IMG/VR virus record: IMGVR_UViG_3300006204_000424
Coordinates: 1 to 22,381 of that record
Length of the DNA: 22,381 nucleotides
Direction: 5' to 3' (one strand)
Source of the DNA: a virus
Lineage: Duplodnaviria > Heunggongvirae > Uroviricota > Caudoviricetes
Shown: positions 20,567 through 21,110 of the stretch, one piece after another
Layout: each line of letters begins with the position of its first letter
Numbering within the stretch: the first letter of the stretch is position 1
Program-made: the position numbers and the translations under genes
The notes under the pieces: model-generated
Databases searched by the model: none
Seen by the model: the letters and a program-made list of their open reading frames with translations, nothing else
What the model was told of the DNA's origin: nothing

Positions 20567-20711
20567 AGACAAATATTGCCTCCATATACAGTAATGTATA
20601 TGCTGTGTGCCTAATAATTACACAGATGATAACTATATCGGTTAAAAGGCGATGGGACGCTCAAGACCGAGGAAAGATTGATTTTAGATTTGATTGACAC
20701 CATAAAAAGTA

Positions 20712-20740
20712 TTGACAGACAATATTATTTATGTTATGGT
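20712..20740 (+). promoter_or_regulatory. Sigma-A promoter with extended -10 inside the intron 2 P6 loop
   Basis: TTGACA (20712-17), 17-nt spacer, TG-n-TATGGT (20735-40). Confidence 0.6.
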
Positions 20741-20746
20741 TACACT

Positions 20747-20865
20747 GTCGAAAGGCAGTGATTTAACATAATAGATTTCTTTTGATTTACTATTATGTTT
20801 TAGGTGTAAACCAGTGATTTAATAAAAGTTATCTTTTATGAGCAGTTTAATTAGCTGCTCTTTTT
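20747..20865 (+). ncRNA. Candidate small RNA (about 120 nt) nested in intron 2
   Basis: Between the promoter and a terminator, with no ORF or RBS. Hairpins AACATAATAG/CTATTATGTT and ATAAAAG/CTTTTAT; CAGTGATTTAA occurs twice. The start is estimated. Confidence 0.45.
20840..20865 (+). terminator. Intrinsic terminator inside intron 2
   Basis: GAGCAGTT-taatt-AGCTGCTC followed by TTTTT. Confidence 0.65.
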
Positions 20866-21110
20866 CATTTCTTAGGAACAATTTAAAATCTTTATCCGTA
20901 GAGACTGTAATACTTTATATGGCAACGTATAAAGTTAAGTTACTCCCCTACTCTTCCATTTTATAATAAAGACAAGAGGGGAAAGATCCAGTCCAATCTC
21001 ACACAATAATCCCAAATAAAAAGAAATGTGAGAGTTAGCCAGAAATGACTAACCGCCATATTATATGATATGGTCAGTAAGGTAGGGTTTCGCCTGAAAG
21101 TAATAGAATG

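Follow-up and report, generated by a model that had tools for sequence, protein, structure and literature searches.

The second intron of a phage tape measure gene carries within its P6a loop what we read as a non-coding RNA gene with its own predicted promoter and terminator. Our favoured reading is that this insert belongs to an uncatalogued RNA family encoded behind a toxin of ~200 amino acids, that it most likely represents the antitoxin of that toxin, and that it was orphaned when the toxin gene was lost. Comparison with related loci makes it very likely that the insert is a member of this family, which we call R1, and that it derives from a toxin cassette. Its promoter layout and terminator point to separate transcription of the RNA, which we consider likely, while the proposal that the family serves as the RNA antitoxin of the toxin stands at slightly better than even.

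The DNA analysed here (the window; 22,381 nucleotides) covers the first 22.4 kb of an IMG/VR phage record of 86 kb. Its tape measure gene is split by introns whose borders are listed in Table 1, and the junctions of introns 1 and 2 read through uninterrupted in ten relatives. Joining exons 2 and 3 connects ..MRIRG to YDEE.., and gapless alignment of the joined product to the intron-less alleles L002 and L003 fixes the intron 2 borders at 20567 and 21110. Introns 1 and 2 each start after a U that is able to pair with the G of the P1 guide and each end in G; P1 of intron 2, as read from the sequence, pairs GAGGU with GCCUC and includes a terminal U.G pair. The Rfam group I model (Intron_gpI, RF00028) gave no match at E ≤ 10 in the window or in the compact 269-nt relative L018, and the introns are therefore called group I-like from their splice logic and core motifs. 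In intron 2 these motifs include R/S-like elements (AGACUG with CAGUC), identified by eye only, and both P5 and the hairpin after P7 show covariation among intron relatives, likewise judged by eye.

Comparison with the sister phage L044 (97% identical) revealed that intron 1 is absent there at exactly 18999–20193 (L044 1902/1903), while intron 2 is present with the same cargo; intron content is thus polymorphic between near-identical phages. The two sequences diverge sharply after 21650, which is where the third intron of the window starts. The intron 1 ORF (19195–20046) resembles restriction-endonuclease-like families only weakly (DUF2726, E = 0.004). The ORF begins inside a loop that would be closed by a candidate stem, a 12-bp complement between 19089–19100 and 20011–20022, and continues through the 3′ strand of this stem towards P7. 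Relatives of the window introns were found in prophages of the mouse-gut Lachnospiraceae Lachnospiraceae bacterium A4, Parablautia muri and Acetatifactor muris. Searches of the GenBank phage collection gave no match for the intron DNA or the tape-measure N-terminus, and exact-pattern scans of IMG/VR with window-specific 22–29-mers gave no match. Across loci L016–L042 the intron family is inserted at several tape measure sites, after residues ~63, ~112–115 and 124 of the exon 2+3 protein; among these loci, the site at residue 124 is used by the window and L044 only, and L018 has at least four interruptions inside ~240 codons.

The intron family was collected with a conserved P7 20-mer and a longer pattern, which gave 24 viral, 27 metagenome and 7 genome loci. 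Throughout the family, conservation of the core extends to GGAAAGA and starts anew at ATCCGTAGAG, with 13 to 1836 nt of cargo in between. In the compact relative L018, homology with the window ends at GGAAAGA (20677) and picks up again at ATCCGTAGAG (20894), which delimits the insert. The stem that closes the cargo covaries across 27 distinct end pairs, mostly with 8–14 contiguous pairs and with unrelated stem sequences. Two members of the same family, L017 and L026, carry zinc-finger/Vsr-like endonuclease ORFs in the P6 loop. A sequence-only reading of the window had described the P6 loop of intron 2 as an ORF-less stretch that holds a promoter-like site, a structured region and a U-tailed hairpin in the sense direction, and all of these lie where it had placed them: the ORFs of the insert reach just 20–42 codons each and none has a ribosome-binding site. 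The cargo of L044 (217 nt) is 99.5% identical to that of the window. Since the P6a stem would insulate the folded cargo, the intron should remain capable of splicing. Five further introns (L023, L028, L030, L033 and L041) carry a 144-nt ORF-less P6a cargo, both ends of which match the 1191-nt ORF-bearing cargo of L037; as judged from these matches, this is a second, independent case in the intron family of cargo shrunk by internal deletion.

Table 1. Features of the tape measure gene and of the intron 2 cargo, in window coordinates.
Feature	Position	Strand	Basis or remark
Tape measure (tail-length) gene	start 16714	+	interrupted by introns
Exon 1 of tape measure gene	end 18998		
Intron 1	18999–20193		
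Exon 2	20194–20566		
Intron 2, group I-like, 544 nt	20567–21110	+	5′ splice site after U20566; last base G21110
P6a-loop cargo, 216 nt, no credible ORF	20678–20893	+	homology to cargo-free L018 breaks at both ends
P6a stem, 5′ strand	20680–20690	+	11 contiguous pairs with 20880–20890
Toxin remnant, last ~6 codons, stop lost, overlaps −35	20702–20722	+	alignment to L120
Sigma-70-type promoter (predicted)	20712–20740	+	−35 TTGACA 20712–20717; 17-nt spacer; TG 20732–20733; −10 TATGGT 20735–20740
Small RNA body (predicted)	20741–20866	+	matches whole covariance model R1
Helix S1, GAAA loop, 7 bp in window copy	20743–20760	+	fold and family helix 1
Conserved single-stranded motif CAGTGATTTAA, copy 1	20756–20766	+	invariant or nearly so in alignment A1
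Helix S2, 10 bp	20765–20799	+	six of seven modelled pairs changed on both sides across family
Helix S3, GUAA loop	20803–20812	+	C-G to U-A in window and L096; motif copy 2 next
Motif CAGTGATTTAA, copy 2	20812–20822	+	56 nt beyond copy 1
Small A/U hairpin S4	20823–20838	+	single-sequence folds; sequence conserved in A1; outside consensus structure
Intrinsic terminator (predicted), 8-bp hairpin 20840–20860 and T5 20861–20865	20840–20865	+	six of eight pairs covary in family
P6a stem, 3′ strand	20880–20890	+	pairs with 20680–20690
Exon 3	start 21111		

The RNA encoded by the insert would start near 20744–20748 and end in the T run of the terminator. The sequence is predicted to fold far more stably than its shuffles (z = −5.4 for 20668–20900 and z = −6.5 for 20741–20870). 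Its longest internal direct repeat is the 11-nt motif (P about 0.015 against shuffles), and, among the cargo tails, such repeats reach significance in the window/L047 type and in L065 alone, and so are no general feature. Two features count against our reading: the −10 element of the window matches only four of six positions, and the start predicted for the RNA would fall within the 5′ arm of S1. The surrounding AT-rich region has no excess of promoter-like sites overall (16 observed versus 13.1 ± 3.3 in shuffles); because such sites are equally frequent in shuffled sequence, the window promoter proves nothing alone, and it is the relatives that supply its support. Strong sense-strand intrinsic terminators inside an essential late gene are found at 20840–20865 of the window and, as equivalents, in most cargo tails. 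Late transcription must either read through these terminators or proceed on a long transcript that masks the hairpin, a requirement that also counts against the favoured reading.

An alignment (A1) of 13 sequences, including the window, was used to build the covariance model R1. The model matches the window over its positions 1–126 with 93.9 bits (E = 1.6e-16), the window being one of the training rows. It also recovers members on which it was not trained, namely L119 (123 bits), L132 (122 bits), L053 (120 bits), L116, L120 and L121 (104–105 bits) and L126 (91 bits). The L053 match adjoins a toxin gene at the contig edge, which is a second toxin copy ~6 kb from the L053 intron; BLAST matches that had suggested intron cargo in L053 were accordingly rejected as lying ~6 kb outside the intron. 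In the A1 consensus, S1 with a GAAA-type loop is followed by the near-invariant motif CAGUGA(A/U)UU, a variable S2 and S3 with a loop that is mostly GNRA, and the 3′ part holds the motif again, then a small A/U hairpin, the terminator hairpin and a T run. RNAalifold predicted 22 pairs in A1, 14 of which show compensatory changes on both sides. Paired cells amount to 97.6%, compared with 87.1% in column shuffles (none of 500 reaches the observed value) and 34–57% when partner columns are slid. The nearest toxin-linked relatives of the window are L116, L120 and L121, in which the S2 helix is nearly identical.

The promoter is conserved together with the RNA that it precedes. In all 17 members of the R1 family the −35 element is TTGACA or TTGACG, exactly 17 nt separate it from a −10 element of the TAnnnT type, and the latter abuts the RNA body. 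In 15 of them a TG stands one nucleotide ahead of the −10 element, as it does in the window. This layout is kept exactly while lying partly inside a coding end, which makes a chance origin very unlikely and provides comparative support for independent transcription.

Rfam contains no match for the insert at the gathering score or at E ≤ 10 (window). At the gathering score, the only match in the 12 related loci is an unrelated skipping-rope RNA (RF02924, 69.5 bits) at L072 4213–4292 on the minus strand, in an Acetatifactor muris prophage, where about 1.8 kb separate it from the intron cargo; the compact intron L018 yielded no relevant match at E ≤ 10. Just beyond the end of the window, at 22631–22731 of the record (L113 1501–1601), R1 has a weak match (26 bits) where an ORF for a 165-aa double-HTH (XRE-like) protein ends; this ORF lies in the cargo of the third intron. 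This match and the tail of L075 (36 bits) resemble only the half of the RNA family that comprises S3, the motif and the terminator.

After L044, the insert is best matched by the cargo of L047 and L063, which contains an ORF, and specifically by its tail. Here the TTGACA of the window aligns with the V-D-I codons at the end of a 202-aa ORF, and the −10 element overlaps the ORF stop codon. The ORF encodes a PemK/MazF-like toxin with a match to Pfam PF02452, and toxin and RNA lie together in the P6a loop of the same intron family. The predicted fold of the toxin has a MazF-like core with MazF chains as best matches (TM by target 0.6–0.69; moderate pLDDT of 69.7), while a PDB sequence search with the toxin found no relative. 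In the toxin model (P0001), residues 6–55 form a predicted N-terminal two-helix hairpin ahead of the core, which might act as an RNA-binding or self-inhibiting module. PADLOC had no match for the PemK, DUF3800 or unknown cargo proteins.

Homologues of the toxin number 235, each of ~200 aa, and the contexts of nine of these were analysed in 25 loci. The loci fall in at least eight unrelated contexts, including a phage tail gene, a ToxN-like gene, positions between housekeeping genes and integrases. There is no conserved protein neighbour and no MazE/PemI-like gene upstream in these contexts and loci. What is constant is a gene-free gap of about 180 nt or more directly 3′ of the toxin, present in all 25 loci. 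All 12 distinct downstream sequences hold the RNA, and 11 of them entered A1; compared with the whole window insert, they show 69–70% identity over 172 nt with E values down to 2.6e-12. The RNA is downstream of the toxin and has its own promoter in all toxin-linked members, and where the toxin is intact its stop codon falls within or just before the RNA promoter. Antisense pairing of the small RNAs with the cognate leader or ORF was not above that of shuffled or non-cognate controls; the absence of an antisense match beyond chance favours a protein-binding mode over type I base-pairing.

These comparisons bear out the main proposal of the sequence-only reading, that of a self-contained small-RNA unit in the intron, as a prediction that now rests on a promoter, four helices and a terminator conserved jointly in 17 relatives. 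The Rfam and covariance searches that it had called for returned no Rfam family, whereas our own model, with compensatory changes in 14 of 22 pairs, indicates a conserved structure. The same cassette was to be sought elsewhere, and the RNA unit does occur outside introns, behind toxin genes. An ORF between promoter and terminator in homologous introns, which the reading had regarded as an argument against a small RNA, was not seen: the ORF of L047 and L063 lies upstream, with its stop inside the promoter. We likewise considered promoter and terminator as the shell of an endonuclease ORF lost from between them, and rejected this since the ORF of the relatives is upstream of the promoter.

The P6a stem type of the window (CTGATTTTAGAT with ATCTAAAATCAG) marks a cargo class in which a conserved ~75-nt leader is followed by one variable ORF. 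The proteins are toxin-like or defence-like and include several PemK subtypes, DUF3800, NYN/PIN, and unknown and membrane proteins. A sense TTGACA-(16–18)-TAnnnT site lies at or just after the ORF stop in 16 of 28 distinct cargo tails, compared with none in antisense and an average of 0.4 in shuffles. Most cargo tails (L043–L076) end in a terminator, and the 100–200 nt of non-coding RNA in between differ by cassette type. Toxin genes outside introns (L087, L090, L100 and L120) have this leader ahead of them too, which argues that the cassette is a mobile unit that entered intron loops rather than an invention of the intron. The leader upstream of the toxin (..GTTCTGATAGTATT.TGTCGATTATTGGTATATAATGG..) has no clear −35 element and contains the direct repeat GAT(T/G)ATTGG. 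In the L065 tail and in L132 (reverse strand, upstream of the R1 match), a DUF3800 gene is followed by a promoter-driven RNA with at least four GGTGT(A/G)ACC mini-hairpins; the longest repeat of this DUF3800-linked RNA is 16 nt (P = 0/200 shuffles). The DUF3800 gene and its mini-hairpin RNA may constitute a second toxin/RNA pairing of the same design.

The window copy has lost its toxin. Window positions 20702–20871 align with L120 5843–6013 at 138 of 168 identical positions, and in L120 the part ahead of the promoter codes for ..DIKGVDK*, the C-terminus of the toxin. Only about 11 nt separate the resulting toxin remnant at 20702 from the P6a strand, the conserved ~75-nt leader seen ahead of the ORF in other cargo of this class is absent, and no toxin homologue was found in the 86-kb record. 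With no toxin directly upstream of its RNA, the window copy is an orphan like L132. In the simplest history, the ancestral P6a cargo would have been a leader–toxin–RNA cassette, as in L047 and L063, and a deletion would then have taken away the leader and the toxin gene except for ~6 codons, leaving the RNA unit intact. Decay in the same direction is seen elsewhere: in L132 the toxin is lost save for a ~60-nt remnant and the RNA is intact; in L119 the toxin is frameshifted and the RNA retained; and the L118 group of seven phage contigs has lone partial units (42–44 bits) with no toxin gene detected upstream, the L118 unit itself being intergenic. This one-sided decay, in which the toxin goes and the RNA is kept, fits a toxin–antitoxin pair, since loss of the toxin first is the only harmless route. 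Two of the roles initially suggested for the insert, the leftover of a deleted cargo gene and an antitoxin-like RNA, are thus each partly right and hold together: leader and toxin are gone apart from ~6 codons, and the RNA constantly accompanies a toxin of the MazF type that lacks an antitoxin protein.

The case for an antidote is built on the strict linkage to the toxin, the absence of a conserved protein antitoxin, the separate promoter, the two repeated units, the lack of an antisense match and the one-sided decay. The insert is best read as one half of a reversed-order, type III-like toxin/RNA pair, namely the RNA, which is probably the antitoxin. We propose that host RNA polymerase makes an RNA of ~120 nt from the insert promoter in the lysogen, independently of the late operon. 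Its strong separate promoter would supply the RNA in excess over the toxin, and the two ‘hairpin plus CAGUGAUUUAA’ units would bind the cognate toxin, and perhaps be cut by it, which would neutralise the toxin in a type III-like manner. In the absence of a toxin in cis, the window copy would either be a neutral survivor or act in trans on related toxins.

The alternative to which we give most weight, although we regard it as unlikely, is that the insert is an inert relic of a decayed cassette, intact only through a recent deletion and of no use to phage or host. Loss of toxin and leader agrees with this, as does the fact that only two copies are known, in the window and in L044; these hardly differ along the entire intron, too little for selection on the orphan copy to be read from them, and give no sign that it is kept by purifying selection. 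Nor is a trans target evident, as neither the toxin family nor R1 was matched in sampled genomes of the host family. The toxin family gave no match in 401 Lachnospiraceae species genomes and R1 none in 151 Lachnospiraceae genomes, both being weak negatives obtained with a loose first-look filter and few scored candidates, and a DNA search of 401 Lachnospiraceae genomes with the insert returned just two short promoter-region matches. The record likewise yielded no toxin. However, a mere relic is harder to reconcile with conserved elements that are all intact, with a score of 93.9 bits against 104–105 for the nearest toxin-linked relatives, and with the independent origin of toxin-less copies in L132 and the L118 group. 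Taken to the opposite extreme, a toxin-less RNA could be an active counter-measure by which the phage disarms abortive-infection toxins of the MazF type encoded by rival prophages or hosts, with the self-splicing introns of gut-phage tail genes as safe landing pads for cassettes of toxin and promoter-driven small RNA, and with the antidote made in the silent prophage or early in infection. We include this as a speculative and rather improbable extension.

A small RNA with a role other than that of an antitoxin, for example as a regulator of toxin synthesis, as a sensor of infection that releases the toxin, or as a trans regulator of host or phage genes, would equally have an independent promoter, a terminator and a conserved structure. 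Cargo encoding DUF3800, NYN and unknown proteins also has a promoter–RNA–terminator tail, which shows that MazF cargo is not alone in this design. Pairing with the cognate mRNA is no better than chance, however, and loss of the toxin with retention of the RNA is best explained by an antidote, which leaves such roles with little probability. We consider it very improbable that the insert extends the ribozyme structurally, as a peripheral P6 domain with GNRA loops that aid folding and with a likeness to promoter and terminator that arose by chance. The GAAA and GUAA loops, the very stable fold (z = −5.4) and the lack of local enrichment of promoter-like sites as a class could be accommodated by such a domain, but the same RNA and promoter lie beside toxin genes at intron-free chromosomal and phage sites, and family members of 269 nt from splice site to splice site have no insert. 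The occurrence of the unit outside introns argues that it is not part of the ribozyme.

The preferred reading, an RNA antitoxin orphaned from its toxin, invites comparison with type III toxin–antitoxin systems (ToxIN/AbiQ, CptIN and TenpIN), which come closest among those known. As in those systems, a toxin with an endoribonuclease fold has no antitoxin protein, its gene lies in tight linkage with that of a structured non-coding RNA with repeats and an intrinsic terminator, and the pair is carried on phages and mobile elements. The RNA gene of type III systems precedes the toxin gene, with a terminator between the two; here, in contrast, the toxin comes first and the RNA second, with a strong predicted promoter of its own that overlaps the toxin stop. 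The tandem 34–40-nt repeats of type III RNAs are replaced by two imperfect ~56-nt units that share an 11-nt motif and form no regular array, and the toxin belongs to the PemK/MazF family and has an N-terminal helical hairpin, unlike ToxN, CptN or TenpN. Because gene order and toxin family, two defining features, do not agree, we have not filed the R1 family under type III; to our knowledge, no characterised type III system has a toxin-first order with a separate RNA promoter, or a MazF-family toxin. The toxin itself resembles those of the type II systems MazEF and PemIK, as it matches PF02452 and its model superposes on MazF structures, but there is no MazE/PemI-like upstream gene in at least eight contexts and the constant neighbour is instead a downstream RNA gene.

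The location of the cargo also has precedents. Homing endonuclease genes sit in P6 loops of phage group I introns, as in T4 td, and the insert similarly occupies the terminal loop of an extended P6 helix. Unlike cargo of the td type, it is a non-coding unit from a toxin/RNA cassette that is also found outside introns. An autonomous predicted promoter and terminator, placed in the sense direction in a late structural operon and suited to expression in a silent prophage, are reminiscent of phage morons; here, however, an RNA would be the product, and the site is not intergenic but within an intron that splits a coding sequence. Literature searches on the present toxin/RNA pairing and on comparable non-endonuclease intron cargo found no description of either.

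If the RNA is indeed an antidote, a MazF-family toxin would be under the control of an RNA rather than a protein, in a gene order that is new among characterised type III systems and with an RNA family that is present in no catalogue searched. It would also mean that bacterial group I introns can carry cargo beyond homing endonucleases, including whole defence-like cassettes and RNA genes that stand alone, in positions where splicing conceals this cargo from an essential gene. Phage-borne lone antitoxin-like RNAs are known from the ToxIN literature as escape devices, and lone antidote RNAs of the kind proposed here would provide phages with a simple escape route from toxin-based defence.
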